Virus record (IMG/VR): IMGVR_UViG_3300027708_000015 | Reading direction: 5' to 3' (one strand) | Length of the DNA: 64,000 nt | Source of the DNA: a virus | Lineage: Duplodnaviria > Caudoviricetes | Shown: piece by piece, positions 6,538-51,393 of the stretch | Position numbering within the stretch: position 1 is the stretch's first letter | Layout of the letters: every line of letters begins with the position of its first letter | The notes under the pieces: generated by a model | Database searches by the model: none | What the model was told of the DNA's origin: nothing | Seen by the model: only the letters and a program-made list of their open reading frames with translations | Program-made: the position numbers and the translations under genes

Positions 6538-6547
6538 AATATCTCAC

Positions 6548-6868
6548 TTATACTGTAGATGTTTCAATGCCGTAAACGTTTGCGTTTACACCAGAGGCGC
6601 TGGAATATGCAACTATTAATAAGTTTCCGTTGGCCACTAGCCCACTGCGTTCAAAAACACCCTTGGGGATGATTGTTGTATCGTACTCGATATATTCACT
6701 GGTCGCAGGTGTAGCCAATGTTGCTATTGCCAATCGAATAGTCACTGATGTAGAGTTTGTATTTGTAAATGAAACGTTAAACACTGCGTAGTTATTACTC
6801 GGTACAGTATACACTGTAGTTAGAGTAGTAGCTGCCAGTGCAAAAGTTCCTAATCTTCCTGTTGCCAT
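6548..6868 (-). CDS. Small virion structural protein, paralogous to 27220..27771 and 31921..32247
   Basis: 106-aa beta-rich protein with shared pattern ..V/I.xN......V.L/V...; SD GGAGA upstream of the preceding giant gene is part of the same operon. Confidence 0.6.
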   Translation of the reverse strand: MATGRLGTFALAATTLTTVYTVPSNNYAVFNVSFTNTNSTSVTIRLAIATLATPATSEYIEYDTTIIPKGVFERSGLVANGNLLIVAYSSASGVNANVYGIETSTV

Positions 6869-6886
6869 TTTAATTTCTCCAAAATT

Positions 6887-15800: not shown

Positions 15801-17992
15801 GCACCGTAATAAAATGTGTCACCTTGTGTGGTCAATACACTTGACTCAGCACCGCTGGCCAATAAATTCCAGTATGTGCCAGTTACATCGTTATCTGGGC
15901 GATTGCCGGTTGCACTGACATGTGCCAGTACACAAGTATAACTGCTAACGCCCCACAGCACAGTATCTCCAGCTACGTAGGTTACACTAGTACTCCAGCT
16001 GACTGAAATACCAGTTGATGAAAATACTGTAATCACTCCACTACTTGTTCCAGTAACTGTGATTGTTAAGTCATTGGCAGGACTTAATCCGCCTAAACTT
16101 GTACCTAAGATCTTTATGGTATCACTGTTGGCATATCCACTGCCGCCTGCATTAAGTGTCACAGTGTAAATTGTATTCTTTGCAGTTACGTTCCAAGTCG
16201 CACTAGTTCCAGATCCAATAATATTGGTACCGGCTACCGCTGAATAAGAATTGTTTGTCGGATTCCATTTGAATCCCGAATTCAACTGACTCCAATATGT
16301 GGTAAATGGTGGTTTAGGATTGGTAGTGCCTGCACTTGTACCTGTAGCAGATACTAACGCAAAAGCTGTTCCACTAAACTGTGTTGCAGTTACAGTAAAA
16401 TGCGAACTGTCTGGGATCGTATTTACATAATATTGGCCAGTGGTCAACAAATTACCCAATGCTGTTCCAAATGTAATTGGTAATCCCACAATCAAGTTTG
16501 CAGTTGTTGCTGAAACTGTTCCGCCTGAACTACTTGCCGGACTTCCAGTCAGTGTATATTGCACCTGTGTTACACTTGGTGTTCCTGTTACAATAAATGT
16601 ACCGTTGTAAGCGGTATTAGTCACACCGGCAACTACAATAGTTTGTCCTGCAACAAACGGAATTTGTGATTGTGAAGCATAAGTTAGTGTAGCAGTAGTT
16701 GATGTAACACTGGCACCAGTAATAGTAATACCTGCGGCTATAGTGATTTGATTAGGGCGAGTACCGTCACTAGAAACTGTTGTAGCAATAGCTTGAACAA
16801 GTTGTACAGTGTTATCAAGTGCCGCCACATATGTATATCCACTAACACGGGCAACATCACCAATTCTGTAACTGTTTGATCCAGACCAATCACCACGGAA
16901 ATTAAATCCAGTGGTAAATGGTTGCCAATACCCTGTAGCAGTACTAGGAGTTTGTCCGTTTCCGTTTTGTATAGCAGTGTAAGTGTAGCCGCCATACGTG
17001 ACCATGTCACCTATAACATAGTTTGTCGTTGAATTCCAACTGTTTGAAAATTCAAAACCGTTAACAAAAATACTAAATTTAGTTACATCTAATACAGTTC
17101 CCGTTGACGTATGTGCAGTTGTACAAATCCATAGATCGGCGCCATAGGTAACAACATCATTTAGGCGATATGTTACACTGCTACCACTCCATGTTTGGCG
17201 ATATATAATTCCTGCATTGAATGTGTCCCATTTAGAAAGATCTGCTTCTAGGCCTAGGGCAACTGTGTTGGCACTGACGTGAGCAGTATTACAAACGTAT
17301 GTATAGCCACCGTTGGTGACTAGGTCACGAACTTTATATCGATAGTTGGTAGACCAGCCCTGAGACCAATTAAAGTTACTGGCAAAGGCTACCCACTTGC
17401 TTTGGTCTTGCTCGAGTCCTAGCTGACTTGTACCAGACACTGTACCCAAGATTGATACAGTATATGTGCCAGTTATTGCAAATGTAATTTGTGTTGTTGT
17501 ACAACTTGCAACTGTAAATGTTGAGTTAACTGTACTAGGAGTGCTAGTAGTACTTGGGCTGAATCCTGAAAGAGTAACAGTTGATCCGACAAGGAATGGT
17601 TGAACTACTTGGCTGGCATAAGTCAAGGTTGCTGTTCCTGCAAAAACTGTAAATCCTGTCGCAGTTATTGTAGCTGTTGATGCTGTGCTAGTATGCGAGG
17701 TTAAGCATTGATAAACTACGCCGCCGTATGATACTTGGTCGCTAACATTATAGTATGTTCCATTTGACCATGCTCCGATCCATTTTGCTCCGTCGGCAAT
17801 CAAATTCCAGTTGGTAGGATTGTAAGCTAAATCTGTAGCAAACCCTGTTGCTGAGTTTGTAGAAGTATGACTAACTACGCAAATATACGTTTTACCGCTT
17901 ACAGTAACCACGTCGTCAACTACATATGCGTTGTTTTGTGCCCAAGGACCTTGGTACACAAACTTAATTCTACCTAGTTTAAATTCTGCCAT
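6887..17992 (-). CDS. Giant virion fibre/adhesin protein (3701 aa)
   Basis: N-terminal CBM5/12-like repeats (W...Y...DxVxYGG.xYxC...HTS), a beta-helix-like block (GLRNMT..GNRSMVANDYT..RATNGN), YGNG/W propeller-like repeats, and C-terminal GRVFFTSTDQDGNF; SD GAGGA. Confidence 0.8.
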   Translation of the reverse strand: MAEFKLGRIKFVYQGPWAQNNAYVVDDVVTVSGKTYICVVSHTSTNSATGFATDLAYNPTNWNLIADGAKWIGAWSNGTYYNVSDQVSYGGVVYQCLTSHTSTASTATITATGFTVFAGTATLTYASQVVQPFLVGSTVTLSGFSPSTTSTPSTVNSTFTVASCTTTQITFAITGTYTVSILGTVSGTSQLGLEQDQSKWVAFASNFNWSQGWSTNYRYKVRDLVTNGGYTYVCNTAHVSANTVALGLEADLSKWDTFNAGIIYRQTWSGSSVTYRLNDVVTYGADLWICTTAHTSTGTVLDVTKFSIFVNGFEFSNSWNSTTNYVIGDMVTYGGYTYTAIQNGNGQTPSTATGYWQPFTTGFNFRGDWSGSNSYRIGDVARVSGYTYVAALDNTVQLVQAIATTVSSDGTRPNQITIAAGITITGASVTSTTATLTYASQSQIPFVAGQTIVVAGVTNTAYNGTFIVTGTPSVTQVQYTLTGSPASSSGGTVSATTANLIVGLPITFGTALGNLLTTGQYYVNTIPDSSHFTVTATQFSGTAFALVSATGTSAGTTNPKPPFTTYWSQLNSGFKWNPTNNSYSAVAGTNIIGSGTSATWNVTAKNTIYTVTLNAGGSGYANSDTIKILGTSLGGLSPANDLTITVTGTSSGVITVFSSTGISVSWSTSVTYVAGDTVLWGVSSYTCVLAHVSATGNRPDNDVTGTYWNLLASGAESSVLTTQGDTFYYGANGPTRLPIGTDGQILRVNNTTPAWQYYGQINNIVYVSPAGVDTLANGQGTTIDKPWATIRYACYQIENGYLNPNASLLLAVNKQFLLKEVSNYVTYTYQASVTGTSGGAFLTANTAGLNVGMPVTFTAQTGSLTLTAAAIPSTTVYYIKAIVANTSFTVASTYGGTALTAAGTGTAVAKYYTSLPTEIERDAGFTIDGFVFDLSHGGTYNTNLNTLLFFNTAGSDYINNFVKYEITQFIGAQTYLLSLIGKILANSAPANNYQALNGISSGSRAIQNTTSVATSSVESVAISTITSLSTILTNAMALGNTSQLPAVVTPATTISVKTGTYNEVLPIVVPSYTAIVGDELRSTIVQPAAANLNLATDKPKSVASLARIQAILPTLLANSTVTATTGNTQTQITTLPAGDTGSQSAVNSVMTGIATVQDMINNGYQATPPFSFTNPTGYNTSFLAGFGDGATQIKNNYTFIKYEVANFLSTNYSTQWTAFGASLQAETLRDVGFILDGLQYDMTYGCNNQSLINGSAYYSLNILQIRASYLPSTVASLQRVAGIISQIVTATSVTATSQTAPYTATQSTSGTAGSAAAAAFAAARVQDVIYWINNGFANTSTSAVTGSIATTAGGTLTVSAVTNGTLVPGMLLTGTGVSTPTYIVNQSTGVTAIASPTLSSGGTTGTNTFVVSSATGILAGQLVTGTNVPAGSYVISTYTAGTTITLVNYWGYPSNFIATGSGTYNFYTAGGTGTYLVSVSQTVSSTTITGNSTITPITSGAYALASTALQTAYTIATARNSEIASDAQVWVQKFYQAYSISTTLTNRDAGLVSAGLAWDLLLQSNFNSIAIGRAYNRLNTSALALLANSNNELVATLGALNFVGYKMKQIVSSGSVIRAQTTIDDMIQSIYGTVSTTLSVATTSTNVLTVGTTTNVLPGMQISFTGLPANITTTATSTTTSTNVINLAATAASLGIVAGQQIYFTGAVVGNLVPNQMYYVINPSASTIQVSNTFGGAAVSLNNATPAATMNVIVNNAGGLWNNYIYYVNTVISGTTLTITSAYKSGTALVINNTVSGMSAVVTINASSQIAGATPGAERNGTLTYDNTQTTVQGSEILRANINFLANEASAYTAANFSGTVTTTATDGTITTSAAHNLKAGDPVNFTATTVVTTVTGTNTNGNITVNSSTGMVVNMPVSFTGSVFGGLSIATTYYIRSISGTTVTLSTAYPASTSLYTPTSTTTGSATMTVGGLFGGLTATNSNTGLTQLYYVLTVPTTTSLTVSTVQSGQGTQTTSTWTAANGVATVMYYYSVVKCLRDTTNIVNALIYDLQFPGNYKSMRAVELYNNAITGSATKNMFLVRNSTGLRNMTMNGLTGVLSAANANFTRRPTAGAYASLDPGFGPNDANSWIYARSCYTQNCTMFGYACTGAKVDGALHAGGNRSMVANDYTTIIGDGIGYWVTGSNAVAELVSVFNYYGYSGYLSELGGRIRATNGNSSYGTYGVIAEGVDTFETPIYGTLNNRYYQAQITNVVTDATDKVYRFEFANAGSNYTNTVHTLSSPGYGTVIVADEFRDAGVFETRLIDNGDSTTSSVGGTSYLTATNSAQISVIGQLVVAATDTALTGAYAGMRVQLTAGTGVGQYANILTFTNGNKVATIVKDSFAPLIITAAATTNNLFTVASTAGMYTGMPVYVYTAFSSLLSVQTLYYVNSANFSATQFQLSLTSGGAGSAVNIGSNVAAVTVTVTATAVINNLITATNTLTAGQAITFNSSFNGIDSGTTYFVLATNLTTSSFAVARDPWTNVAVTITATGSATSTGTVGSAMYAAGWDHVLPGVAINNGPDLTTGYVIEPRISYTAPGYLATARTLNNAVTGGAVAFGNGRYITVGTGTTTNVSTDGKTFANGGTLTSATWNGVVYGGGAGATATAVIGGLGGTGAVLTAVVGTGAYATQIVSITIVSGGYNYLTPPSIVIVGGGGSGATAICTVLNGAIQTVTLSVNGSGYSSAPTVTANTSILASITANQYGRNYFSSPQITVSQPQGLSPTAYPQSASATQGTYYQTAAGRIYLCITAGTTSATIPSFDYTTTSGYTNIQNGSAYFTYIATQAQVASPTLTNNGVSALPLSVAGYGYTSTPTVTITDTSAKFVAISNSASTSTNTSYSSNNGTSWTNTTTTVLNLRSLAYGNGVYVAVGGASGTATAVSTSDIVSGWTNRSSNITALVSGYYSAVTYGGSYFVAVQNGALITSVTQNANTWTQGANLPSGFTDAVSIAYGNNRYVVLGTSGKIAYSINNGGTQSVAGWTTAPSCTGTTTSVLSSTYTWTAITYGQGQFVAVAQGTVAATSWDGINWYRTTLPTSTNWGSIAFGNPISATLGAQPLFVAVTTQGTTAAASIRTGTQPLGRMKAASGVITEIRMVEPGSGFAKGNVSSTVAQTTVTVNSSSGTTITLSASATLTVGAPITFASAVGSISASPVVYYVQASSGTSLSVATTPTGSAATAGTTSALTVVATVQPVLVVDDTTNMPTSIANNYPVEFSVASGTLTTNTTYYVIGSSVGASTFQVTATSGSTTPVALTSTTPTGMIYTVGPLVQQFDTNRVKTAATRVRTGNGILGNPSITNKGAGNATGTVSTLGDGYSDLFQNSAYINVAGLYSMPSPGANVQFGTTYTGVPWTANTVVRTGVQLIATNSVVVGSTTTYYYNVYTVSNGGTTGSTAPTSTGSSVSDGTATLSYVGQNPNTWYKLVTISNQLGIAGNYTATFQVNPALTTATAGVHNTTITTRLKYSQVRLTGHDFLYIGTGNQTQTNYPYVNAANAIQANQQYPVAGGRVFFTSTDQDGNFNVGNLFGVQQSTGTATLNASAFNLAGLQSLTLGAINLGVGSATITQFSTDPYFTANSDNIVPTQKAIKSYITAQIGGGSSSLNVNTLTAGQVYIANNSIGLAATVTGTTTINVTSKMNFTGGIDGAPVALIFFGQK

Positions 17993-18037: not shown

Positions 18038-21000
18038 TTATTGTGATCGTGCAAATGCAGTTCTAGCAAAGAAACTCAGTGCCGGCAAATTACCGTCAAC
18101 TGCGGCATTAGGACCTGTAAAATTTGCTAAGGCTGAGAACCTTACATTCGATCCTATCACTCCTGCAGGTATAGTTGACCTAATAAAGTTTGGACCGCCA
18201 ACTACAACAGTACCTGCTGTCAGCTGTCCTGTAAATGTGTTTGATCCGCCTGCTGATAGTCGATCTGTTAGATACTTCTTGATTGCTTTCTGTGTAGGGA
18301 TTACATTATCACTATTAGCCGTAAACGTACTGTCAGTGCTGAACTGGTTGACAACAACACTTGATCCGCCTACTGCAATACCGCCTAAGCTCAGACTGCT
18401 CAATCCGCTCAATCCAAATTGACTTGCACTTAGGGTAACAATACCAGTGGCTTGTTGTACTCCAAACAAGTTACCAACTTTGAAGTTACCGTCTTGGTCA
18501 GTTGACGTAAAGAACACACGCCCATAGTTGGCTTCAACTGATTGGTTATTTTGGGCAGCCGCATAGGCGCCCACTGGAAAGCCAGGATAGTTACTGTTGA
18601 TAAAATCTCCGTAGCCAATATTTAAAAAATCGTGTCCAGTCAATCGTGCCTGACTATATTTGCTACGTATACTTACAGTTGTTCCGTTGGCAGTGGCGTT
18701 AGCTGTGCTAATACTTGGACTTACGCTTACGTTAGCTTCTAAGTTAGGAGCAACGGTATTAAACACACTGTATGCACTAGTGACTTTGAAAATTTGGCTG
18801 ACTCCGGTAATAGTCAAGTTATCACCTGGGCTAGGCAGTCTTGTTAGATTATTCAAAATTATCTGTAAACCTGTTTGATACTGATCTGCATATCCGTTAC
18901 CTGTTACAATTACTGAAGTAGAATTAGTATTGTATCCAGTTCCTCTATTGGCAAAGGTTGGACTACTTAACACTCCGTTGGCTATGCGTGGACTGATGCT
19001 GGCTAGTGTGGTCACATTAGGGTCCACAAAAGATACAGATGGTGCCACGCTATATCCAGAACCAGGTTCAAACAAGTTAAGACTTGTAATTATATTTGAT
19101 GCAATACTGGCTCGAGCCTTGGTTTGACAGCCTGCACTGATAACACTTCCTGTGTTTCTTCCTGCTAGAGTAGAGAATACTCCATTATATTGGGTGGCGC
19201 CAGATGCTCCAACGAATCCAAATGCCATTGCACTGTAGCCATCATTTGAAACTGTTCGAGATTTCCAGTCAAATCCATTTTCGCTTGTGTATGCTGTTGT
19301 ACTTGATGCAGATACTGTAACAAATACTCCTTGTCCGTAACTGATTTTATCTGCAGAAATAATATTGTTTGCCGCATACCACACTACGCCGTCTTGCGAA
19401 TATACAGGAGTTGCACCCGTGCCGGTAGCAACTGCTACAAACAGACCGTTTCCATATGCGACTGAACTCCAAGCACCGCTAGCAGGTAATGTAACGCTGA
19501 TCCATGTGGCTCCAGTCGCGCTGTATGCGGCAATGGTGGCTGTTGTAGTTACAGGAGTGCCTGTAAATGTAACTGAACCAACGGCATTGCTACTGGTAGG
19601 ATTCACTCCACTAATTGTGATAAGAATATCATTGGCTGGGGTTGTGCCGCCCACGCTGGTTCCAAGAACTTTCACAGTGTCACCCACTGTATAACCGCTG
19701 CCGCCGTTGGCCACAGTAACAGTGTATGCAGAAGGATTTACAACCACATTAAAAGTTGCACTTGTACCAGTAGCTACCACTACTTGAGAGGCCACGCCTG
19801 CGTATCTTACTCCGCTTGCTAGGGCAACAAATCGTCCACCAGTTACATTGTTAGGTGCAGACCCTCCGTAAGTCATACACGACCAAGGTGCGGATGACGG
19901 CAGTGTTGCAGAGGTCCATGAGATTCCATAGTTAGTACTATAAATTGCATTGTTTGTATTTGATGCTATCACACTAAATGTACCGTTGCCGTAGGCAATA
20001 CTACTCCAAGAGTTTGTTGGTGCAGAAGTCACAGTTCGCCAGCCAGCTCCATTAGATTTTGAAATTGCAAATGTGCTATTAGATACACCACCACTTGAAA
20101 TTATCACCCAGTATCCGTTGCCATATGCTATGCCAACAAAACTAGATCCTGGTAAAGTGATACTAGTCCAAGTTGTTCCGTCACTGGATCCAGCTGCCAC
20201 TGTGCCGGAACTGGCCAATGCTATCCAATAACCGTTGCCGTGCGCCATAGTGGCGTATGTGGTCCCTAAAGATAGTGCTACTACTGAAGTTGCAACTGAC
20301 TGTGTAAATGCAGGTTGCGTAAAGGTTGTTCTTGGTTCAATAAAATACTGTGACGAGCTATCTAGTGCTACGACCGGCTGTGTACCTGGATTGATATGGT
20401 CCCAACCCACCGCGGCAATACTCATTGATCCAGTTTTGTCAGCAAGACTTATTGGGCTAGCACTTGTACTGGTTCCTGAAATTGTTCCGGTATTAAGTGC
20501 TACTGAGAAGTGTAATGAATCGGGAATTGATTGAATATAATATGTCTGGCCTATTTGCGGACCACCGAATAGCTGAGTTGAGAACGTGGCATTCATACTG
20601 CCAATACCTAGAGACAATGAGGTCTTTGCAGAAGTTGATGATAGTGTCATCGTGCCGCCTGTGGCTGTAGTAACCTGAGTTGCTTGTGGACAAGTTGTTG
20701 CAGTCATATAGCCAGTAGTAGTAGCAGTACATTGAACTACTGCCTGTCCTGGCAATGTGGTAATAGTAAACGTTGTAGCGTTATTGATAGCTGAAATATA
20801 ATAAGTTGACTCGGGAGAAATGGTATTTATGGCGGCTCCGACAAACCTAATTGGATGATCTTGTTGAAATCCGGTAGTACTGGAAACAGTAATCAAGTTT
20901 GTACCTGCTTCAAATCTAGTTACAGTTACTGATATAATTGTTGTGGATATTGCAATTGTTGTGCTGTTGAGAATTTTGGCAATGTAATATTTTTGTGAAT

Positions 21001-24000
21001 CTGTTAGTCCGCCAATCATCGGAGAAGAAAATATCACAGGATTCAATGCTACCAATGATGAAGTATCTGCCATAGTGAGTTTGGGATAATTTGAACCCCA
21101 ATAGGCATTGGTTGCACCGTTAACTACACCTGCTGTTGATGCTGTTACTGTCAAACTAATAAGTGTAGAAGAAATAGTAAAACTAGTAGAACTAACAATT
21201 TCGTTAATATAGTAAACTGTGCCAACTGATATTCCACCTAATGCTGTTCCTGTAAACTGTATCGGATAATTAACAACCATATTGGTTGTTGAGCCTTGCA
21301 GATAACTTGTATTAGAACTAAAATTCATAGTCATAGTACCAGTACCACTGATTAACTGCCACACTGTGCCAAATGGTTGATTAGTAATTTGTATCGTTGT
21401 GCTGTCAACAATTGCAAAAATATAATATGTTTGCGTTGGATTAACTGTACTGAATGTTGTGCCACTAAAAGTCACTGCTTGGTTAAATACCAATCCCACA
21501 GTGCTTGCAACTGTGAATGTATTAATTGTTCCACCAAATGCCTGCGTAACTGTAGTTGTTGCTAGAGATGTTGAAGTAACCGAAGTTGTATAGTATGTGG
21601 GAATAAATTGAACTGGCTGATTCAAATATAATGATGCCGTTGACGTAGTAGTTAATAAACTTCCGCTACTGGCAGTTGCAGTTATAGGTACTGCTGAAAA
21701 AGATTCTTTTAGTAACCAAGCTACTTTAGTTCCGCTATTATAATATGAGATATAACCGTATTGGCCTGCGCCCGTACCGCCTTGTATGAATACTCGCATA
21801 CCGGTATAGTTACCATTAGTGTTCGTATCTGCCTGCGATAATTGCACATACTGAGGATTACCTGCTTGAGCATTATTAGACGCAGTAAGATAGCCAGCGC
21901 CGCCGGTTATACCATTACTATCTGTAACTACACGTGATTGAAACACTGCACCGCTACGAATTTCATCTCCAATTGTTACAACACCGGTACCTGCACCAGT
22001 AATATTGTAATTAGCATAGGCAGTAAACTTGGATGTGTTGGTTACTTCCAAGTAAAAACTCGGCGTAAAATTAGATTTTGATAACTCAGTCTGGGACGCA
22101 TAAACAAATGTGTACTGCCCAATGGAGCCATTATAGCCTCTAGGATACAATCTATATTGTAGTTGTGTGTTCAAGCCGGTTGTATCGTATACTGAAAACC
22201 ATATTCTTATCCATCCAGCTGTGGGATCAGTTGCTGATAGTTGTTGATTGATAGCGCCATAGTTTACGGGCAATAATCCGCCACCAGAATTTCCTGCTGT
22301 TACTACTCCTGTATCAAAATTGTAACTGATACTACTGGTCACTGTGCTTGATCCAGAAAATATTGCATACAAATCAACAATTGACGATGTGCCTTTTTTC
22401 ACATAAGCACTTAGAGTATATCCCAACGCACTGTTAATTGGAACTGTTCCAACACTTGATACACTTGTAACCACATTACCGCTTACTCCGGTTATTGTAA
22501 TGATACAATCATTGACATTATCAACACCGCCTAGTGTACTACCAGCAATATATAATGTGTTACCGTTTACATACCCGGCGCCACCGTCTGATACAGTAAC
22601 AACATATGCAGTAGCGGTAACTGTAACGTTGAACAGTGCTGGATTATTGGCGCCGGTACCACCGCTACCTAGAATATTTGTACCACCTAAATTACTATAA
22701 ACTGCGCCAGCCGCTGGCACACTGATATTCTGATAAACATAACTTCCGTTAGGGCCGGCAGAATTTCCTGCAATAGCCCATGCCTCAGTCAGACCAGTCG
22801 GTGCTGTAGTATTCTTGTTAAATGACACGTTTGAATCATTAAGCCAACTGCCGCCTAGGAAATTATTGCTGAAATTTAATAAATTAGTAGTTGTTGTATT
22901 GTAGGCCGATCCAGAATTGGAGAAAGTCAATCTTACCAATTGAGCTTGAGCGCCAAACGCACTTTGTACTTGGGCTTGTACTTGGCTACTTTGATTATAA
23001 ACGATGCCGGTCGCTGGTGTTTCTGTGAGGTCGTAACCTTCTGCAATAACGCCGTATGTACCATAACTAGTGTTACCGTTGGTAGCACGTATACGTCCAC
23101 CATTTTCTGCAAAATATCCACAGTATCCGTAGTATGAAAATATAGATACTGCTTCTGTTAATGCGCCTGGACCAGTACACCAAAGTCCGACACCGTCACT
23201 AATAATGTGTGTGAAATCATTACAAACAATTGATTTATTACCGCCATTGTGTAGATTACCGTCAATCTTTAAACCAGTACAGCCGTTACCAAATGATGAA
23301 ATATTTTGAACATATGGGCTACGTCGATAGATCCACGCTGTGGTGTCAGTTGGGCCCGACCCGGGATCTAAGCTAGCATAACTTCCTCCTGTAGGTCGTT
23401 GTATATAAAAAGCATCTGGATTTGATAAGGTACCTAACAGCCCGGTTAGAGTCATGTTGCGCAAACCAGAACCGTTGCGAAGACGGAACATGTCTTTCAC
23501 ACAGTCACCCGCATAAACTGTCATATGAGTGCCTAATGCAACACTGCCTACGCCGGTTGTCAATGGAAATATTGTTGAGCCAACTACGGTCACTGTTGCT
23601 ATGGCTCCTGAGATCACAGACGCCACTGTAATGATAATATCGTTAGCAGTTATGGTTGCAGTACCAGTACCAGTGCCAACTCCTGTTGCAGTAAATCTTA
23701 TACCAACAGTACTGGCACTAGCACCAATTGCAGTAAAATCAGTTGTGCCAACAGATATAATTGTGTATTGGAATCCTGTTATAAAAAATCCTGCAACAGT
23801 TGAGGCGATTCCAAGACTACTGCCTAAAATTCTTATTGTGCTACCAGCCACATAGTTTGTGCCGCCATATGCCACGCTCACAGAGTAGGTTCCATCTTGT
23901 ACTGGGGTCACATTGAATGTTGCACCTGTACCAGTTGCTGTTATATTGGTTCCCGAGACAGAATAATACGTTCCAGACAATGCAGTAATTTTAAATTGTG

Positions 24001-26815
24001 TAGCAGTGATTGTTGCACCTACAACATAATAAGTTGTTCCTGGAGTTATGCCGCCAAACCCATAATATGGATTTGTTCCTATGACAGAAGTAATACTTGG
24101 GTTAACAAACTGCAATGCTGTTTGATCTACAAATTGACTGGTACTGTTAACTGTAACTAGATTGCTGCCACTTGTAGTAGCAGTGCATTGCAGAGTCAAA
24201 ATAATTGCTGGAGAAACTGTTACTCCGCGCAGTTCGTCCCCAATAATGGCCACGTTGGCGGGCACCACAATTGGTAGGGTTTCGAAATAACTTCCAGTCT
24301 TGACAAAAATACTGGCAGTTATTCCGCTGTTGGAAGGTGGTACCAGTGCAGTGCTCTGATTAGTAAGTGCTGTGGTCACAATGCTCAGCAATGAAGATGC
24401 TAATGCAGTTGCTCCCAGCTCGGGGCCAGCACTTGTTGTTTTTTGATAAACTACGGGTGTTATTGAATTTGCGGTTTGATATATTGCACCATTACCGACG
24501 ACATTATTGGTCAACGCTGTTTGTATAAACGTGCCTAACTGAAGTAATCCAGATAGGAAATATGGTAGTTCTGCTAGACTGGCAGCATTGATGAATGTAG
24601 TTGAACTACCAAATGCAAAATATGCCAGGGTGGCTGCGACTGTTTGACTGTTGCCGCCACGTGACATGTCATACACTATGGCATCAATGATATATCCTGC
24701 ATCGCGTATAGTCTTGGTTTGATCGAATACTGAACTGGGAGTAAATCCATTAGTACTGGCCGCTTTTTGAGACAGCATCCAGTAGTACATTTCTGTGGTC
24801 AACCAAGTTTTATTTGCTGTGATAAGAGCAGTTGCGTTTTGATTAATAGTTCCAGCACCGACAAAGTTACATGCGTATGCAATGGTCTTCCAAGGTTGGT
24901 CCCAAGTAGTTCCGTAGTCTGCACGGTCTATACCTGTTTTTGTTGAAACATAGTAAACAGCATTGACCTGATTGATTTTATTCCAAGCCGGAGCCGTTGT
25001 TACGGTGCCAGTGACTCCGGTGCTAGCTACTGCTTTGAGTGTATATTGATTAGTTCCGATCGGTAATGCAGTATAAGAACTAGTAGCATTTGAATAGTAT
25101 TCAGTATCACCAATAGTATTCATTGCATTTTTTCTAGCATGAGGTATGTAAAATATCCAATAGATATTTGTAGTATCAGCATCAGGACGATTATTTTGTG
25201 GAGAAAGTTGTGAGGTGTGCGTTTGGACACAAACATAAGTACCGTTTTGCCAAACAGCCAAATCGCCCACTATGTATGTGGTCCCAACGGTCCAGGTTTT
25301 GGTCCAATAGCGTCCCGGAATAACTATCTTCCAATTGATATAATTGGTACCCACTAGCGATAGTGATTGACCATCTGTGAGTGCTGTATCATTTACTGCA
25401 CTGACTGTGATTGTAGTTGCGGTATTATCAATGTTGATAACAGTTTGTCCAGCACTAAAGCCGTTGCCAATAACATTCATGCCAATCGTTATGCCTGAAA
25501 CTGAATTGAGTTTTAATACAGTGCCTGAACTGCCAGTTGTGGAATATGTTTTGCTAACACTATAAGAGCTTGGGTCTTGTGCAGTATTATCAGCAATGGC
25601 ATCAAAGAACATGCCATTACGCCTAATCACATCACCAATTCGATAATTGGTTGCAGAACCCCATTCTCCCCTGAAATTAAAACCTTGTGTCAACACTCCC
25701 CAGTCAGTCGCATCAACTGATGGTGTATTACCTATGTTGTTAGCAGTTTTACTATAGTAGGTATATCCACCATATGATACAGTGTCTCCTGTTTGGTATA
25801 CAGTACCAACATTCCAAGAGCCAACGTATTCAAATCCTGGCATCCATGTGGTCCATTTGGCTTGATCAAAACCATTAATGCTGACTGTTAATCCTGTCAA
25901 CGTTCCCTGAACAGTGGTCAGTTGACCTGTGTTTGCAATAGCGTTTGCATAGGTATTTGATAATGTAAACGTGCTGGCTCCATCGGTTGCACTCACATAA
26001 TACGTTGTTGTTGCTCCGGCGTATCCTGAGATAGATCCAGTCGCTGTTGAAGCCAGTTGTCCAGAAACAGTAACAGCTTGCCCAATAATAAGTGTGCCGC
26101 CGGTATAAGAAAATTGTCCAGCGGTTCCGGTTGTAGCAACAGTGCTTAACGTGTTAGCTACGACACTGGTATGTCCGTTGATGGCAGACCACAAGTCCGG
26201 ACCGTATTTTACAATGTCATTGGTTTTGTATCTAACATTTGATGACCATGTGCCTTTGTATTCGACACCACTATCTATAATGGTCCATGCTGATTGATTT
26301 GCCTCTAAGCCCAGTGTATTGCTTGCAGAACTAGTATGGTTGGCTATGCACTTGTAAACAATGCCGCCATATTTGACCACATCATTTTTGCCGTAGACAT
26401 TATTTGGAAGCCAGCCCACTGACCTCCATGCATTAAATTCTGAATACTGAGTCCAATAAGATGCTTGGCTAGCAAAAGCTGTGCTAGTGTGTTTGGTGTT
26501 GGCATAATAAATAACGCCGCCAAATGACACAATGTTTCCTAAACTGTACGCTTGACCAGTTTGCCATGCTCCGCCGTTGGCTGTGACAAAAGTCTTGCCA
26601 TCTACAATCATGTTCCAGTATGGTGTGCTTGCTCCGGTCTGAGTAACGTAATACAAGTCGTTGTAAAAACTTGTAGCATCAGATGTATTTGGAAGTAGGC
26701 AAACATAGGCTTTACCTTGATAACTGACAACATCATCTCGAGCGTAGATAGTAGCAGGCGTCCATACACCCTTCCATGAAAATCTCAATCTTCCAATTTT
26801 AAATTCTGCAGCCAT
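18038..26815 (-). CDS. Giant virion fibre/adhesin protein (2925 aa), paralog of 6887..17992
   Basis: Same architecture: MAAEFKIGRLRF start, CBM5/12-like repeats, GDELR, GLRNMT, RATNGN, YGNG repeats, GRVFFTSTDQDGNF. Confidence 0.8.
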   Translation of the reverse strand: MAAEFKIGRLRFSWKGVWTPATIYARDDVVSYQGKAYVCLLPNTSDATSFYNDLYYVTQTGASTPYWNMIVDGKTFVTANGGAWQTGQAYSLGNIVSFGGVIYYANTKHTSTAFASQASYWTQYSEFNAWRSVGWLPNNVYGKNDVVKYGGIVYKCIANHTSSASNTLGLEANQSAWTIIDSGVEYKGTWSSNVRYKTNDIVKYGPDLWSAINGHTSVVANTLSTVATTGTAGQFSYTGGTLIIGQAVTVSGQLASTATGSISGYAGATTTYYVSATDGASTFTLSNTYANAIANTGQLTTVQGTLTGLTVSINGFDQAKWTTWMPGFEYVGSWNVGTVYQTGDTVSYGGYTYYSKTANNIGNTPSVDATDWGVLTQGFNFRGEWGSATNYRIGDVIRRNGMFFDAIADNTAQDPSSYSVSKTYSTTGSSGTVLKLNSVSGITIGMNVIGNGFSAGQTVINIDNTATTITVSAVNDTALTDGQSLSLVGTNYINWKIVIPGRYWTKTWTVGTTYIVGDLAVWQNGTYVCVQTHTSQLSPQNNRPDADTTNIYWIFYIPHARKNAMNTIGDTEYYSNATSSYTALPIGTNQYTLKAVASTGVTGTVTTAPAWNKINQVNAVYYVSTKTGIDRADYGTTWDQPWKTIAYACNFVGAGTINQNATALITANKTWLTTEMYYWMLSQKAASTNGFTPSSVFDQTKTIRDAGYIIDAIVYDMSRGGNSQTVAATLAYFAFGSSTTFINAASLAELPYFLSGLLQLGTFIQTALTNNVVGNGAIYQTANSITPVVYQKTTSAGPELGATALASSLLSIVTTALTNQSTALVPPSNSGITASIFVKTGSYFETLPIVVPANVAIIGDELRGVTVSPAIILTLQCTATTSGSNLVTVNSTSQFVDQTALQFVNPSITSVIGTNPYYGFGGITPGTTYYVVGATITATQFKITALSGTYYSVSGTNITATGTGATFNVTPVQDGTYSVSVAYGGTNYVAGSTIRILGSSLGIASTVAGFFITGFQYTIISVGTTDFTAIGASASTVGIRFTATGVGTGTGTATITANDIIITVASVISGAIATVTVVGSTIFPLTTGVGSVALGTHMTVYAGDCVKDMFRLRNGSGLRNMTLTGLLGTLSNPDAFYIQRPTGGSYASLDPGSGPTDTTAWIYRRSPYVQNISSFGNGCTGLKIDGNLHNGGNKSIVCNDFTHIISDGVGLWCTGPGALTEAVSIFSYYGYCGYFAENGGRIRATNGNTSYGTYGVIAEGYDLTETPATGIVYNQSSQVQAQVQSAFGAQAQLVRLTFSNSGSAYNTTTTNLLNFSNNFLGGSWLNDSNVSFNKNTTAPTGLTEAWAIAGNSAGPNGSYVYQNISVPAAGAVYSNLGGTNILGSGGTGANNPALFNVTVTATAYVVTVSDGGAGYVNGNTLYIAGSTLGGVDNVNDCIITITGVSGNVVTSVSSVGTVPINSALGYTLSAYVKKGTSSIVDLYAIFSGSSTVTSSISYNFDTGVVTAGNSGGGLLPVNYGAINQQLSATDPTAGWIRIWFSVYDTTGLNTQLQYRLYPRGYNGSIGQYTFVYASQTELSKSNFTPSFYLEVTNTSKFTAYANYNITGAGTGVVTIGDEIRSGAVFQSRVVTDSNGITGGAGYLTASNNAQAGNPQYVQLSQADTNTNGNYTGMRVFIQGGTGAGQYGYISYYNSGTKVAWLLKESFSAVPITATASSGSLLTTTSTASLYLNQPVQFIPTYYTTSVTSTSLATTTVTQAFGGTINTFTVASTVGLVFNQAVTFSGTTFSTVNPTQTYYIFAIVDSTTIQITNQPFGTVWQLISGTGTMTMNFSSNTSYLQGSTTNMVVNYPIQFTGTALGGISVGTVYYINEIVSSTSFTISSTLISLTVTASTAGVVNGATNAYWGSNYPKLTMADTSSLVALNPVIFSSPMIGGLTDSQKYYIAKILNSTTIAISTTIISVTVTRFEAGTNLITVSSTTGFQQDHPIRFVGAAINTISPESTYYISAINNATTFTITTLPGQAVVQCTATTTGYMTATTCPQATQVTTATGGTMTLSSTSAKTSLSLGIGSMNATFSTQLFGGPQIGQTYYIQSIPDSLHFSVALNTGTISGTSTSASPISLADKTGSMSIAAVGWDHINPGTQPVVALDSSSQYFIEPRTTFTQPAFTQSVATSVVALSLGTTYATMAHGNGYWIALASSGTVAAGSSDGTTWTSITLPGSSFVGIAYGNGYWVIISSGGVSNSTFAISKSNGAGWRTVTSAPTNSWSSIAYGNGTFSVIASNTNNAIYSTNYGISWTSATLPSSAPWSCMTYGGSAPNNVTGGRFVALASGVRYAGVASQVVVATGTSATFNVVVNPSAYTVTVANGGSGYTVGDTVKVLGTSVGGTTPANDILITISGVNPTSSNAVGSVTFTGTPVTTTATIAAYSATGATWISVTLPASGAWSSVAYGNGLFVAVATGTGATPVYSQDGVVWYAANNIISADKISYGQGVFVTVSASSTTAYTSENGFDWKSRTVSNDGYSAMAFGFVGASGATQYNGVFSTLAGRNTGSVISAGCQTKARASIASNIITSLNLFEPGSGYSVAPSVSFVDPNVTTLASISPRIANGVLSSPTFANRGTGYNTNSTSVIVTGNGYADQYQTGLQIILNNLTRLPSPGDNLTITGVSQIFKVTSAYSVFNTVAPNLEANVSVSPSISTANATANGTTVSIRSKYSQARLTGHDFLNIGYGDFINSNYPGFPVGAYAAAQNNQSVEANYGRVFFTSTDQDGNFKVGNLFGVQQATGIVTLSASQFGLSGLSSLSLGGIAVGGSSVVVNQFSTDSTFTANSDNVIPTQKAIKKYLTDRLSAGGSNTFTGQLTAGTVVVGGPNFIRSTIPAGVIGSNVRFSALANFTGPNAAVDGNLPALSFFARTAFARSQ

Positions 26816-26827
26816 TTTTATATCCTA

Positions 26828-27208
26828 TTAAATTGCACTAACAATCTGAGCGGCACTGTAAATATATGTTTGATTTACACGAACAACCAATTGTCCCTGT
26901 GTGTCAATATAATAAAAACAATTTTTACTGTCCCAACGATACTGATCAAAATACAAGTTGGGGTAAGGTCTACTGTGATCTGTTGCTAGTCTACCATCAA
27001 AATAATCCACGCCATATTCAAAATTTTCAAAGTTTGCGCTGTTTGGTCCCGGCAAGTTCACTGCAATACTGGCAGTTGAACTCAATTGATCAACTTTGTT
27101 AAAAAACAATGTGCCATCATCCAATCTGCGCAGTCCGTAAAAGAATCTGGGATTGCCCTCTCCCAACATATCATTGTAACTTAGATCACCACCAACATAG
27201 TATGACAT
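26828..27208 (-). CDS. Hypothetical protein in the structural operon
   Basis: 126-aa aromatic-rich ORF (FFYGLRRLDDG) with AAGGA SD and tight spacing to neighbours. Confidence 0.65.
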   Translation of the reverse strand: MSYYVGGDLSYNDMLGEGNPRFFYGLRRLDDGTLFFNKVDQLSSTASIAVNLPGPNSANFENFEYGVDYFDGRLATDHSRPYPNLYFDQYRWDSKNCFYYIDTQGQLVVRVNQTYIYSAAQIVSAI

Positions 27209-27774: not shown

Positions 27775-28839
27775 TTATCCTAAACTTATTACCACACCCA
27801 ATGCCACATCACTGGCCTGGGCAACAGTTACACCGCTACTTAGACCCGCAACGCTGGTCCATGATATACCGTTGTAAACTTCAACATATTGATTGTCTGT
27901 ACTGAAACGTAACATTCCTGTGGTAGAATTTGCAAATGCAGGGCGCTGTGCTGTGTTTCCTACCGGTACTACAACACCGTAGGTTCCGGCAAATTGAAAA
28001 TACCCATTACCTGTACTGGTCAGTTGTGTTACTGCATTATTGGCAGTATTGGTTACACTGCCTGTGGTAAATTTTAAATTGCCCAAGGCCACTCCGCTGG
28101 TTCCTGAAGTGGTGAAATTGATATCTACGTTACTGGTATTGGCGCTGATTGTGTTACCACTAATTGTGATGCTGGGCGTTCCTGTGGTTGAAAAACTACT
28201 TACATTTCCTGTAGTAGCATTGATATTGGTAGTGTTGACGTTTTGACTGTATACATTTTTCCATCGTAGGAGATTAGATCCCAGCGTGTATGTGTTAGTG
28301 GTTGCGGGTAAAATATTACTGCTAACTTCACCGGCAAATGTGATAGTATCTGTAGGCATATCGCCTAATTGAATATTTCCGTCAGCAGTGATTGTACCAG
28401 TAGCATGCAAGTTGCCTGTAACCAACACATCTGAATTTAAATTGATTGCACCTGTACCGTTGGCAACAATATTGATAGCGCCGTTGGTGTTTGTAGACGC
28501 TAGGGTATTGCCAGTTAGACTTAGATTCCCTACAAGTGCAGTACCCTGATAGATAGTTGCATTTGGACCGCTTGGGGTAAATGTAATTGATGAATTAATA
28601 CTGCTTATTGTACTGCCTGAAAAGGTCAGTAACCCCAGTGAAGCTGATCCACTGGTGTATAAATTTGTAGTTCGGGTTGTGCCGTTTACGCTTAGATCGT
28701 TGGTAGGAGTGGCTGTGTTGATACCCACGCGGCTATTAACAACATCTAAATAGAGAAGGTTCGTCTCAAAGGCCAAATTCTGCCCGTTGCGGAGCAAATT
28801 ATCCTTTAAGAGCGGACCGGAAATTCGACCGACAGCCAT
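27775..28839 (-). CDS. Fibre-like virion protein, paralog of 28980..30143
   Basis: GRISGPLLKDNLLRNG...LYLDV N-terminus and VPVGNTAQRP...GMLRF...VEVY C-terminus. Confidence 0.7.
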   Translation of the reverse strand: MAVGRISGPLLKDNLLRNGQNLAFETNLLYLDVVNSRVGINTATPTNDLSVNGTTRTTNLYTSGSASLGLLTFSGSTISSINSSITFTPSGPNATIYQGTALVGNLSLTGNTLASTNTNGAINIVANGTGAINLNSDVLVTGNLHATGTITADGNIQLGDMPTDTITFAGEVSSNILPATTNTYTLGSNLLRWKNVYSQNVNTTNINATTGNVSSFSTTGTPSITISGNTISANTSNVDINFTTSGTSGVALGNLKFTTGSVTNTANNAVTQLTSTGNGYFQFAGTYGVVVPVGNTAQRPAFANSTTGMLRFSTDNQYVEVYNGISWTSVAGLSSGVTVAQASDVALGVVISLG

Positions 28840-28960
28840 GTGCTCTCCTTGTACCCCCGTGTTTCACGGATAACCACCTTTTCATCCCTTGTTTCAAGGG
28901 CTCTTTGCGGGTTTACCACAGTCGGATATCGCAATGCTTGGTCAAGCACCGCAGTAAAAG
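28840..28960 (-). promoter_or_regulatory. Structured 5' leader (four hairpins) between late promoter and SD
   Basis: Hairpins at 28931-28952, 28906-28920, 28886-28900 and 28857-28869; SD AAGGAGA at 28844-28850. Confidence 0.6.
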
Positions 28961-28968
28961 TATTTAGC
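28961..28968 (-). promoter_or_regulatory. Late promoter GCTAAATA
   Basis: NNTAAATAC immediately upstream of the structured leader. Confidence 0.6.
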
Positions 28969-28979
28969 TGATTTGAATT

Positions 28980-30143
28980 TTAGTAGCCAAAGACGATGCT
29001 GTACAATGTTGAAGCGTCACTGACGTCTTGCACAGTAGCATTGGCATTTTGACCATAGGCCGGAATCCAACCTTGGCTTGAACTATAAACTTCCACATAG
29101 GCCAATGTGGTGTCATATCTTACAGTGCCTTCTACTGGGCTTGCTGGTCGATTAAGGTTGGTTCCCACAGGAACTGCTACACCGTTGGTGCCTGAGAATT
29201 TGTAGTATCCCTGGCCAGTAACAGCCAAACTCATATTACTGGCAATTTTGAAGGTGTTGGCAGTGCTGAAGAAATCAGAACCATTGATCCTAACTGACCC
29301 GGTGCCCGTAGTAGAAAAATTAATATCTCCTACAGTGTCGGATATAGTATTGCCTGTAAAATTTATATTGCCAAAATTTGCAGTTGTTAGTGCAAGTGGG
29401 CCCGATGTGGTTTGCCCTACAGTCAGCGTAGTCAAATACAGATTATTCCATTGCAAAGCACTGCTACCCAAATCCCACTCATATGATGTGCCTATATACA
29501 ACAAAGACTCATCATCTACTCCTGTAAACAATGGGCTAGATTGGCTTATTACATTTTGTGCAGATTGATTAACTATTCCCACGGGAACAATATTACTGGC
29601 CACTTCTGCTGTAATTGTTATACGATTACTGGTGCTGGTGCCCAGTGTAATACTACCGTCAAATGTTATGTTTCCAGTAGCATGTAAACTGCCATTTACT
29701 GTTGTTTGTACATTACCCGAGTCGTTGGCAAAATTAATACTGCCAGTGCCGTTGGGTGAAAAATTCACAGCGTTGTTGGTAACAGTATTGCTTAAGGTAT
29801 TGCTGTACAAATACAAGTTTGCAGTGCTTAATCCCGGAGTGATAATTCTGGGGTTTATGTTTTGACTGGGACTAATTGTTATTGAATTGCCAAGCACGTA
29901 CTGAATTGTGCTGCCGCTGACCACAAAGTTGCCAATGTCTGCTGTAGTATCAACTGTTAAGTTTACTGTGTCAATTGCTGTAGGCACATATAGATCGTTA
30001 ACTGGAGACGCATTGTTGAACCCGATGCGTTTGTTAACCACATCGAGATATAGGACTTTGTTGTCAAACGCTAAATTTGTACCATTGCGTACTAGGTTGT
30101 CTGCTAGTAGCGGGCCACCTATTCTTCCCTGCTGGACTGACAT
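28980..30143 (-). CDS. Fibre-like virion protein, paralog of 27775..28839
   Basis: GRIGGPLLADNLVRNG...LYLDV N-terminus; VPVGTNLNRP...GTVRY...VEVY C-terminus; SD GGAGG. Confidence 0.7.
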   Translation of the reverse strand: MSVQQGRIGGPLLADNLVRNGTNLAFDNKVLYLDVVNKRIGFNNASPVNDLYVPTAIDTVNLTVDTTADIGNFVVSGSTIQYVLGNSITISPSQNINPRIITPGLSTANLYLYSNTLSNTVTNNAVNFSPNGTGSINFANDSGNVQTTVNGSLHATGNITFDGSITLGTSTSNRITITAEVASNIVPVGIVNQSAQNVISQSSPLFTGVDDESLLYIGTSYEWDLGSSALQWNNLYLTTLTVGQTTSGPLALTTANFGNINFTGNTISDTVGDINFSTTGTGSVRINGSDFFSTANTFKIASNMSLAVTGQGYYKFSGTNGVAVPVGTNLNRPASPVEGTVRYDTTLAYVEVYSSSQGWIPAYGQNANATVQDVSDASTLYSIVFGY

Positions 30144-33694: not shown

Positions 33695-35476
33695 TTACAC
33701 GTTATCGATCTTAACTGAAACGCTGGACACTGCTGAACCAAATGTCCAGTTAACTGTTGCTCCATCTGCAAACTGTGTACCAGTATTGCGTGTTACACGG
33801 CAACGACGGTTAGTGATCTTGCTGACCCAATATGAACCACCAGCTGAGTCGACAGCGTTGATAGCCATTGTGCCACCAACTGTTGGGAAAGCTGTTACCA
33901 ACTTGGCGTAGAATACACCATCAGCATTTTCAACACGGAAACGTTGTGTGTTTTCTTGTTTGATAATGTCAGTGTCTTGACGAGCAACGCCACCAGTTGT
34001 GGCCAATGCCACTGCTTGCATAGCGGCATAGTTACCAGTGTAACCAGTTGTTACCTGTGCGGCAAATGTCATTGTTGCAGCCGCTGATCCTGAACCAAAT
34101 GTGATTGCTGTGTTACCACTTACTACTGTAGTAATTGTCAAACTTGTTGCTGTTGTAACAACTGCGGCATTGCCGCCTACTGAGCTACTTAGAACAATTT
34201 CAGTTGCTCCGTTGACTGCAATAATGTAATAAGTACCAGCTGACAAGCTACCACCTGAACCAGTTGTAACCACTTTCAATCCTGGAACCAATTGGTCTGT
34301 TGAACTTACAGTTTCTTTGTAAAGAACAATTGACAACCCAGTCACTGCACCTGCGGCTCCGCCTGTTGGAGCAGTACCTGCAATAGTTACCAATGTCAAT
34401 GTGCTTGTACCGTTAGTGGCTGTTACCAAATAGCTGTTACCAGTTGAGTATGAGCTGTCGATGAAGTTTGTACTTGCTGTACCAGTAAATGTAACCACCT
34501 GTCCAATATAGAATGTTCCAGCGGCTTGTGCTGTACCCAATGTGATTGTGTTAGTTACTGCACCCACTGTGATTGTACCATAAGCACCACTAGCAATAGT
34601 TGTTACTGTTGTAGCACTAATACCAGGAGTTACTGGAACTGTGTTGATATAACCGTTACCGTTGTTAGTGTATGTAACACCGTTAACACCAAATGTTGCT
34701 GGAGTAATTGTCAAACCGGCACCGCCAGTTACTGCTGGTGTTGGAGTTTGAGCGGCATTTAAACCAGCTGTAACACCTGACTGAGCGTATGTACCACCAG
34801 CTACTACGGCTACGCTCGCTACTGTGTTGTATGTGCCACCAACTACTACGGTTGAAGCTGTAACTGTACCAGAACCTGTTACAGTTGTAATTGCTACTGG
34901 ACTTGCGGCCACTGCATTAGCATATGAACTGGCAAGTGTGATGCTTGTTGAACTACCGACTACAGCAACATAATATGTGCCGTTAGCAAACCCTGTTGCG
35001 GTACCTAGTGTAACACCAGTAACTACAACGTCTTGTCCAACTACGTATGTACCAGAACTAATTGTAGCAACACCAGCAGTTGTAATGTTAGTAATTGCCA
35101 AACCAGTTTGACTAGCTGTTAGAGTTGGAGTATATGTACTTGTAACACCGCCATAAGCTACTGACAAACTACCAGCGCCAGTTGTGTATGCTTTAGTTTG
35201 TGAACCAGCTGAGTTAGTTGTACCAGTTAGAATTGTGAATGTTGGAGTACCAACTGCTGTTACACCACCTTCTGTGCTTAACGCTGGTTTTGGAAATGTT
35301 GTTGTTAATGCGGCTGCTTGAGCTTGAGTATATGAACCAGCTGTACCAACGCTGGCATTAAGAGCTTTTAAACCACCTAGATCGTAGTCTGTTGGCAGTA
35401 AACTTGTATTACCGTATAGGCCTGTGGCACCTGTATTTCTTTTACCAAAATATTTTTTATTTAGAGGACGTCCCAT
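33695..35476 (-). CDS. Virion structural protein (MGRPLNKKYFG type)
   Basis: 593-aa T/G/A-rich ORF with strong SD AAGGAGA; charged termini flank a low-complexity beta-rich middle. Confidence 0.7.
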   Translation of the reverse strand: MGRPLNKKYFGKRNTGATGLYGNTSLLPTDYDLGGLKALNASVGTAGSYTQAQAAALTTTFPKPALSTEGGVTAVGTPTFTILTGTTNSAGSQTKAYTTGAGSLSVAYGGVTSTYTPTLTASQTGLAITNITTAGVATISSGTYVVGQDVVVTGVTLGTATGFANGTYYVAVVGSSTSITLASSYANAVAASPVAITTVTGSGTVTASTVVVGGTYNTVASVAVVAGGTYAQSGVTAGLNAAQTPTPAVTGGAGLTITPATFGVNGVTYTNNGNGYINTVPVTPGISATTVTTIASGAYGTITVGAVTNTITLGTAQAAGTFYIGQVVTFTGTASTNFIDSSYSTGNSYLVTATNGTSTLTLVTIAGTAPTGGAAGAVTGLSIVLYKETVSSTDQLVPGLKVVTTGSGGSLSAGTYYIIAVNGATEIVLSSSVGGNAAVVTTATSLTITTVVSGNTAITFGSGSAAATMTFAAQVTTGYTGNYAAMQAVALATTGGVARQDTDIIKQENTQRFRVENADGVFYAKLVTAFPTVGGTMAINAVDSAGGSYWVSKITNRRCRVTRNTGTQFADGATVNWTFGSAVSSVSVKIDNV

Positions 35477-51238: not shown

Positions 51239-51393
51239 TCCTTGACAATGTAATATGTAGGTTTGGGATATTTGTTAGCAATATCGTTTTCTTTAATCCA
51301 TTTGTTCATATCTGGCGCATTAAAAAACATTTTGTTAACGACTACTTTATGTGTGGCCGACTCTACAATACTAAGATAGTTACTTTTACTCAC
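51229..51393 (-). CDS. Small hypothetical protein
   Basis: GTG start at 51393 with AAGGAGA SD inside the end of the sigma gene; 54 aa. Confidence 0.55.
   Translation of the reverse strand: MSKSNYLSIVESATHKVVVNKMFFNAPDMNKWIKENDIANKYPKPTYYIVKECY

Follow-up and report, generated by a model that had tools for sequence, protein, structure and literature searches.

The window analysed here, a 64,000-nucleotide stretch of the IMG/VR virus record IMGVR_UViG_3300027708_000015, encodes a T4-type portal protein (a gp20 homologue) and a gp23-type capsid protein, which mark the virus as a T4-like phage. The public sequencing runs matching this stretch are freshwater and lake metagenomes. On its minus strand a gap of 140 nt separates two tail-fibre-like genes, whereas gaps elsewhere in the operon are mostly 3-13 nt. 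The leader element that fills this gap has a GC content of 50%, against 42% for the window, in agreement with a first-pass annotation of the sequence that described an unusually long, GC-rich leader of four hairpins ending at the Shine-Dalgarno (SD) sequence. Other long gaps in the packed late operon are found at 6538-6886 (349 nt) and 40456-40815 (360 nt). The features of the fibre leader and its neighbouring genes are collected in Table 1.

Table 1 Features of the fibre leader and adjacent genes, in window coordinates
Feature	Position	Strand	Remark
Leader element	28840-28967	minus	3' edge 16 nt upstream of the AUG of the fibre-like gene
T4-type late-promoter box CTAAATA	28961-28967	minus	(A/C)TAAATA at the equivalent position in 111 of 115 leaders among the matches listed
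H1, 5'-proximal hairpin, 9 bp, GCGGUGCUU-GACC-AAGCAUUGC	28931-28952	minus	compensatory changes at 9/9 pairs
J1/2, variable linker GAUAUCCGAC	28921-28930	minus	differs by clade
Pseudoknot 5' half, UGUGG-UAAAC-CCGCA	28906-28920	minus	from comparison of relatives
Stem alpha, 5' strand UGU	28918-28920	minus	
Loop 1, GGUA	28914-28917	minus	
Stem beta, 5' strand AACCC	28909-28913	minus	
Stem alpha, 3' strand GCA	28906-28908	minus	
H3, optional hairpin CCCUUG-AAA-CAAGGG	28886-28900	minus	inserted in pseudoknot loop 3
Loop 3 remainder, A-rich, AUGAAAAG	28878-28885	minus	
Stem beta, 3' strand G(U)GGUU	28872-28877	minus	U28876 bulged
H4, hairpin CCGUG-AAA-CACGG	28857-28869	minus	flanking bases W = 28870, K = 28856
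Shine-Dalgarno AAGGAGAGC	28842-28850	minus	read off the sequence
Start codon AUG	28837-28839	minus	read directly
Codons 8-10 (CCG CUC UUA), candidate anti-SD segment in the gene	28808-28815	minus	putative
Regulated gene, 354-aa fibre-like virion protein MAVGRISGPLLK...	27775-28839	minus	PHROG hits to virion structural or unknown families
Upstream paralog, 387 aa	28980-30143	minus	38% identical to the downstream gene; lacks a separate leader
126-aa protein, two genes downstream of the leader	26828-27208	minus	homologues in at least 100 loci

The two fibre-like genes are indeed paralogs, and the leader adjoins the ribosome binding site (RBS) of one of them, as had been proposed from the sequence; the upstream paralog begins 11 nt from the preceding open reading frame. 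A GRIxGP N-terminus is also present on the upstream gene in 43 of 80 complete cases. Among relatives of the downstream protein the N-terminus is kept and total length ranges from 349 to 2187 aa, as in tail fibres, with many relatives having a downstream gene of only about 350 codons. When the fibre protein was searched against isolated phages with tblastn, the only hits covered 17-20% of the query and fell in Melnitz and cyanophage baseplate genes. Foldseek comparison of an AlphaFold model of the fibre protein (pLDDT 71.6) gave weak tailspike-like matches only.

The leader heads an operon with genes for proteins of 354, 183, 126 and 2925 aa, the last an 8.8-kb gene, and the 183-aa and 126-aa proteins follow the fibre gene in at least 100 of 166 loci. 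The 126-aa protein, at 40-78% identity, is more conserved than the fibre and belongs to no Pfam family; its AlphaFold model (pLDDT 74.9) is mostly beta, with no match in the PDB. Foldseek searches of the PDB with the models of the fibre and 126-aa proteins returned nothing at E <= 0.001, a PDB sequence search was empty, and an RNA-binding family or fold was seen in neither, although weak or missing fold matches do not count against binding. The 126-aa protein is a candidate fibre chaperone, adaptor or regulator. Further down the late operon lie two giant open reading frames on the minus strand, 6887-17992 (3701 aa) and 18038-26815 (2925 aa, the 8.8-kb gene just mentioned), whose products may be giant fibre or virion proteins.

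The late promoter placed before the leader in the first-pass annotation is supported by a TATAAATA-like -10 box of T4 type that recurs across the leader family (Table 1) and by a gp55-like late sigma factor encoded in the window at 51386-52219 (phrog_12791, E 2.8e-72); further TAAATA boxes precede late genes within the window. The stem of H1 begins a few nucleotides past the predicted transcription start. Two metatranscriptome contigs, at 28923-29075 and 28679-28939, span the promoter region and cover 28679-29075 at 100% identity; they are uninformative as to transcription, start, strand and 5' ends. No terminator-like site, that is, no GC-rich hairpin followed by a U tract as in an intrinsic terminator or attenuator, was found in 28500-29300. 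A DNA contig from a 2024 freshwater metagenome (run X6) joins 28875 to 28952, with just 21 nt on the short side of the joint, and probably comes from a related phage with a different leader middle.

Taken alone, the window sequence is weak proof of a functional RNA, since the fold energy of the leader is unremarkable: the single-sequence fold has a minimum free energy of -42.1 kcal/mol (z = -1.56) and 13 of 200 shuffled sequences fold equally well. The case is therefore carried by comparison with relatives. A protein-based search recovered 14 IMG/VR loci at 48-87% identity, every one with the leader, and a profile of the fibre-like protein recovered at least 584 relatives in IMG/VR. The core 17-mer is present in 40 viral loci, and a pattern search anchored on the last hairpin yielded at least 120 loci. 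About 145 distinct leaders were collected, and the number of related phage contigs in which the leader stands before this fibre gene is well above one hundred. Counts given for 114 or 115 pattern-found leaders, or for 100 pattern-found loci, are counts among the matches listed. The short form of the leader is about 85 nt and its core about 50 nt. Some 40 core nucleotides are near-invariant between phages whose fibre proteins are just 41-58% identical.

A covariance model built from 56 short-form leaders found exactly one copy in each of the 100 pattern-found loci among the matches listed, at 52-105 bits, with the window copy at 28854-28960 scoring 71.9 bits. Of the 80 protein-anchored loci, 77 contained one copy, and the other three were missed at contig ends. 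Every copy among the matches listed sits between an (A/C)TAAATA box (111 of 115) and a gene starting MA(V/I)GRI(S/T)GPLLK. Among 185,579 prokaryote species genomes, 19 loci share the core 17-mer and none holds a true copy; the best of these scored 16.9 bits with the model, and the occurrences were dismissed as chance. No match was obtained when long- and short-form leaders were compared by BLAST with 50,697 isolated phage genomes. The Rfam cmscan suggested in the first-pass annotation assigned the leader to no family. With Rfam 15 at the gathering threshold, hits in the window fell elsewhere than on the leader; at E <= 10, the segment 28600-29200 matched no family, including c-di-GMP-I, preQ1, SAM-II/V and the ribozymes; and searches of relatives (11 at E <= 5, then five) returned nothing overlapping the motif. 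A Polynucleobacter-1 RNA (RF01718, 108 bits) lies at 47001-47134 on the minus strand, inside the phage genome.

Alignment of the relatives redefined the secondary structure. H1, which corresponds to the hairpin with a GACC loop originally read from the sequence, shows compensatory changes at all nine pairs in both the pattern-found and the protein-anchored sets. Its loop contains ACC in 89 of 114 leaders (78%) among the matches listed, a feature that is not universal. Pairing of this loop with GGUA, GGUU or the downstream AUGGUU was considered and rejected, there being no compensating changes and 25 of 114 listed leaders having no ACC. The J1/2 linker differs between clades (GAUAUU, AUGGUU, GAACAU and others) with no compensating partner. 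The helix GAUAUCC/GGUUAUC, put forward earlier as the closure of a multi-way junction, can form at least six of its seven pairs in just 7 of 114 leaders among the matches listed and was abandoned.

The core of the leader is an H-type pseudoknot formed by a 3-bp stem alpha (UGU/GCA) stacked on a 5-bp stem beta (AACCC/G(U)GGUU). Stem alpha is paired in 100% of leaders. Its first pair is U:A in 107 and A:U in seven of the leaders listed, and its third pair is U.G, U-A or C-G. Loop 1 reads GGUA in 114 of 114 pattern-found leaders among the matches listed and varies solely in divergent clades. Stem beta takes the form AACC-x1 with y1-(bulge)-GGUU, and x1:y1 has the highest mutual information of all column pairs: C:G in 88 leaders, A:U in 16, G:U in six, U:A in two and unpaired in two, among the matches listed. 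All five beta pairs show compensatory changes in the protein-anchored set, where the stem is 100% paired, and one clade replaces it entirely with GGGCC/G(U)GCCC. The hairpin UGUGG-UAAAC-CCGCA of the original reading does not persist in the comparison, since its inner two pairs are not kept and G:x1 is unpaired in 22 of 100 sequences. Because x1 pairs instead with the base before GGUUA, a pseudoknot takes the place of that hairpin. The inner pairs, broken in 22% of sequences, were rejected in favour of the competing stem beta.

H3 is a hairpin in this phage, as first described; across the family it is an insert that need not be present, and 57 of 114 leaders among the matches listed do without it. 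The half of the family without it reads ...CCCGCAAUGYAAGGUGGUUA.... Where inserts are present they vary in sequence and length, always fold and frequently end in a GNRA cap; a second hairpin occurs in 18 of 53 distinct inserts. Since H3 is optional, the UGAAACA cap that it shares with H4, initially described as a twin motif, is a coincidence of this phage. A coding reading of the leader is excluded, since the inserts, with lengths of 6, 18, 19, 21, 22 and so on, do not come in multiples of three. H4 is near-invariant, as far as it is not exchanged for another hairpin; at its second pair C:G gives way to G:C in 12 of 58 distinct sequences, and in one subclade the hairpin is replaced by GGGA-CAGGA-UCCC at equivalent size and position and at equal distance to the SD. 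This subclade comprises loci L219, L225, L240 and L253 (about 560-600 in each locus), and loop 1 there is GGUC or GGUU. The bases flanking H4 (W..K) covary in a non-canonical way, being A..G in 85 leaders, U..U in 26 and U..G in three, among the matches listed, and never A..U, across all H1 classes.

The whole structure outscores 500 of 500 column shuffles and all slid registers. Altogether 92-93% of cells are paired, with compensatory changes in all four helices (H1, alpha, beta and H4), and a mutual-information scan of all fixed columns brought out only x1:y1, W:K and the first alpha pair (a1:a1'). G.U pairs outnumber A.C pairs by 171 to 13 and by 92 to 8, an excess that assigns the structure to the mRNA-sense RNA rather than to DNA or the opposite strand. 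The covariation that the first-pass annotation proposed to look for in homologous leaders is present in these four helices, and the lack of structural conservation among relatives named there as grounds for discarding the element is decisively contradicted by this covariation and by the copies in 77 of 80 protein-anchored loci. The proposed architecture of four hairpins around a multi-way junction is not supported: H1 and H4 stand as hairpins, the second hairpin is the pseudoknot and the third the optional insertion. The leader is a genuine, strongly conserved, mRNA-sense structured element tied to one gene family of uncultured T4-like phages.

The region between H4 and the early codons is constrained as well. 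The 3' end of H4 lies 13-19 nt from the AUG, with a mode of 16, in 114 leaders among the matches listed. In the window H4 is followed by GGGGUAC and the SD, and an SD followed by GAGC is conserved across the leader family. Synonymous sites of codons 8-10 are frozen: CCG encodes 94 of 99 prolines, CUC 98 of 106 leucines and UUA 92 of 112 leucines, and at a leucine four codons later all six codons are used. Codons 8-10 complement the SD flank GAGAGC(G), with a duplex energy of -9.3 kcal/mol in the window, and local folds pair at least three of four SD bases in 89 of 114 leaders among the matches listed. Covariation also links the base preceding GCUCUU to the one that follows GAGAGC, the latter being G in 48 and U in 20 cases with CCG, and G in one and U in seven with CAG (Gln). 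Compared with synonymous recodings, the SD duplex energy has a mean z of -0.8, with 16 of 106 native sequences ranking among the best 5%. RNAalifold returned no consensus helix for the region from the SD to +45, since two SD registers are in use. A helix between the SD flank and codons 8-10 is likely, on moderate support; because of the RNAalifold result, an anti-SD role for these codons is something we infer.

Three observations speak for control of translation initiation at a single fibre gene, and not for a role in transcription, in processing or at the DNA level: spacing to the AUG is fixed, the early codons are frozen and the association with one gene is absolute. The leader is very probably a functional cis-acting RNA and probably acts on translation. 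As in known translational operators, a structured leader of the gene's own mRNA adjoins the RBS, 13-19 nt from the AUG, in one gene family. Its fold is also aptamer-like and supported by covariation, as that of a riboswitch would be. In the short-form leaders, half of the family, no conserved pairing joins the core to the SD or an anti-SD.

Several known RNAs invite comparison. The pseudoknot of T4 gene 32 is likewise H-type, with coaxial stems, lies in the 5' leader of a T4-type phage mRNA and mediates translational control by free protein. It differs in serving an early/middle gene for an ssDNA-binding protein, in lying further upstream of the start, followed by an unstructured A/U-rich tract, and in its unrelated sequence; the fibre leader adds H1, H4 and insertable hairpins and precedes a late fibre gene, and its protein partner is only proposed. 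The freshwater-2 RNA (RF02980), an orphan candidate for cis-regulation, occurs in the same phage at 35474-35555 on the minus strand (75.5 bits). It too starts just past a CATAAATA box and reaches up to the SD of a gene for a late virion protein of 593 aa (33695-35476), which has no family hit. Its sequence and fold are unrelated to those of the fibre leader, which the Rfam model misses, and it serves a different gene, so that late leaders of at least two unrelated structures exist in this phage lineage. The compact pseudoknots of preQ1-I and SAM-II/SAM-V riboswitches, with an A-rich third loop adjoining the RBS, are also similar. In those classes the SD lies within or directly adjoining the pseudoknot, upstream of metabolic genes in bacteria, whereas the fibre leader has its SD beyond the pseudoknot, precedes a structural gene and is matched by no Rfam model.

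A superficial likeness to c-di-GMP-I aptamers (GEMM-I, RF01051) had been raised because of the words GGNAAACC and CGCAAAG, and relatives of the leader often do carry a GNRA hairpin after CGCAAAG. The likeness is not supported. The AAACC of the leader pairs with the downstream GGUU in a pseudoknot and does not open a GNRA hairpin, the hairpin is absent in half of the family, and there is neither a closing P1 helix, the candidate for which is not conserved, nor a tetraloop receptor. The three helices of the c-di-GMP-I class (P1, a GNRA hairpin and a tetraloop-receptor hairpin) are thus not found together here, and cmscan gave no match at E <= 10. The wider proposal of a cis-regulatory RNA setting the level of one fibre paralog keeps its basis in a conserved sense leader adjoining the RBS.

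The reading tentatively favoured, with a probability of roughly one in three, is that the leader is a protein-responsive operator, ranked ahead of a constitutive stabiliser or standby platform and, after that, a metabolite riboswitch. It would act as a translational operator for the first gene of the tail-fibre module, with the folded pseudoknot and H4 at the 5' edge of the 30S binding site, and codons 8-10 would pair with the SD flank and close it further. A trans-acting factor would recognise the near-invariant core and set the frequency of initiation. Speculatively, this factor may be free, unassembled fibre acting via its invariant N-terminal domain, or another phage or host protein, and the outcome would be assembly-coupled feedback on fibre dosage. 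The invariance of about 40 core nucleotides, set against fibre identities of 41-58%, points to recognition by a specific partner. A protein is preferred to a metabolite as that partner because the leader serves a single structural-gene family and the motif is absent from the cellular genomes searched. Autogenous leaders tied to one gene are familiar from ribosomal-protein leaders, the T4 gene 32 pseudoknot and the P22 scaffolding protein, and the confinement of the present leader to phages and to one structural-gene family would, by analogy, fit that pattern. Two points speak against a protein operator: neither the fibre nor the 126-aa protein shows an RNA-binding fold or family, and the upstream paralog has the N-terminal domain in common with the fibre but is not preceded by a leader. 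The near-invariant junction and loop bases and the covarying stems, moreover, fit a small-molecule aptamer equally well.

On that last evidence the core could instead be an aptamer for a late-infection metabolite, ion or second messenger that alters access to the RBS and hence fibre dosage, a riboswitch that we consider unlikely. Near-invariant loop 1 and junctions, covarying stems and variable GNRA-capped inserts are the pattern of aptamers, and an H-type pseudoknot abutting the SD recalls the preQ1-I and SAM-II classes. Riboswitches are carried by related aquatic myophages, Melnitz with its glutamine riboswitch being an example (PMC9004378). The leader, however, precedes a single family of structural genes with no metabolic link, rather than several families of metabolite genes, no true copy of its core 17-mer exists among the 185,579 prokaryote species genomes, the short form has no conserved alternative pairing between core and SD or anti-SD, and no Rfam aptamer matches. 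A phage-only class that senses the state of the infected cell and doses one of two alternative fibres, as a hedge on host range, is similarly improbable. A constitutive leader with no sensor, which protects the 5' end from decay, offers a ribosome standby or enhancer platform that offsets a closed SD, or both, is doubtful but placed second. H1 lies within a few nucleotides of the predicted 5' end, the operon is one of very long genes, spacing to the AUG is fixed and the SD is predicted to pair with the coding region, all of which such a leader would explain; a stabiliser, however, needs structure and not sequence, yet about 40 core nucleotides are near-invariant, and the W..K covariation and invariant loop 1 suggest specific recognition.

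It is very improbable that the leader is a self-cleaving ribozyme or an RNase processing site separating the two fibre cistrons on read-through transcripts, even though its size and its pseudoknotted core with invariant bases are like those of small ribozymes; strict spacing to the AUG points to initiation and not to cleavage. It does lie between two genes, and metatranscriptome contigs spanning the promoter region weakly suggest read-through RNA, DNA being possible in such libraries; a late promoter just upstream makes processing unnecessary, however, and no Rfam ribozyme matches. Processive antitermination by a put- or EAR-like RNA, aiding read-through of the very long fibre operon, is given slightly less credence still. 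Such an RNA would be well placed directly after the promoter, where it leads an operon with a gene as long as 8.8 kb, but would have no need of a fixed distance to the AUG or of frozen codons 8-10, and the downstream gene of relatives often has only about 350 codons. An element acting as DNA, either a linker for recombination of fibre modules or a protein-binding palindrome (GGTTAACC), is the least credible of all. In its favour, conservation at the nucleotide level continues past the leader through the opening 45 nt of the gene, the fibre bodies further downstream vary strongly and GGTTAACC is palindromic. Compensatory changes nevertheless retain pairing, G.U exceeds A.C by about 12:1 as expected only for single-stranded RNA, and the palindrome is broken (GGTTATCC) in 29 of 114 leaders among the matches listed.

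The motif was not found in the literature searched, which includes the main text of Weinberg et al. 2017. Fremin et al. 2023 mined IMG/VR intergenic regions for covarying structures and reported 8,495 unnamed 'DNAVirus_X' candidates (PMC10690425); the leader, common as it is, may well be among them, the main text of that paper presenting no fibre-gene leader. The motif is absent from Rfam 15, extremely conserved and confined to abundant uncultured freshwater T4-like phages.

Phage late operons seldom carry structured regulatory leaders, and to our knowledge no other has been tied to a tail-fibre gene. In metagenomic phages the leader can serve as a practical marker by which to annotate late transcription starts and to locate the first gene of a fibre module, and it is compact enough for direct tests in vitro. 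Should it bind a metabolite, it would represent a new phage-specific riboswitch class governing host range. If, in line with the protein operator favoured here, it responds to free fibre protein, assembly-coupled autogenous control would reach the organelles of host recognition.
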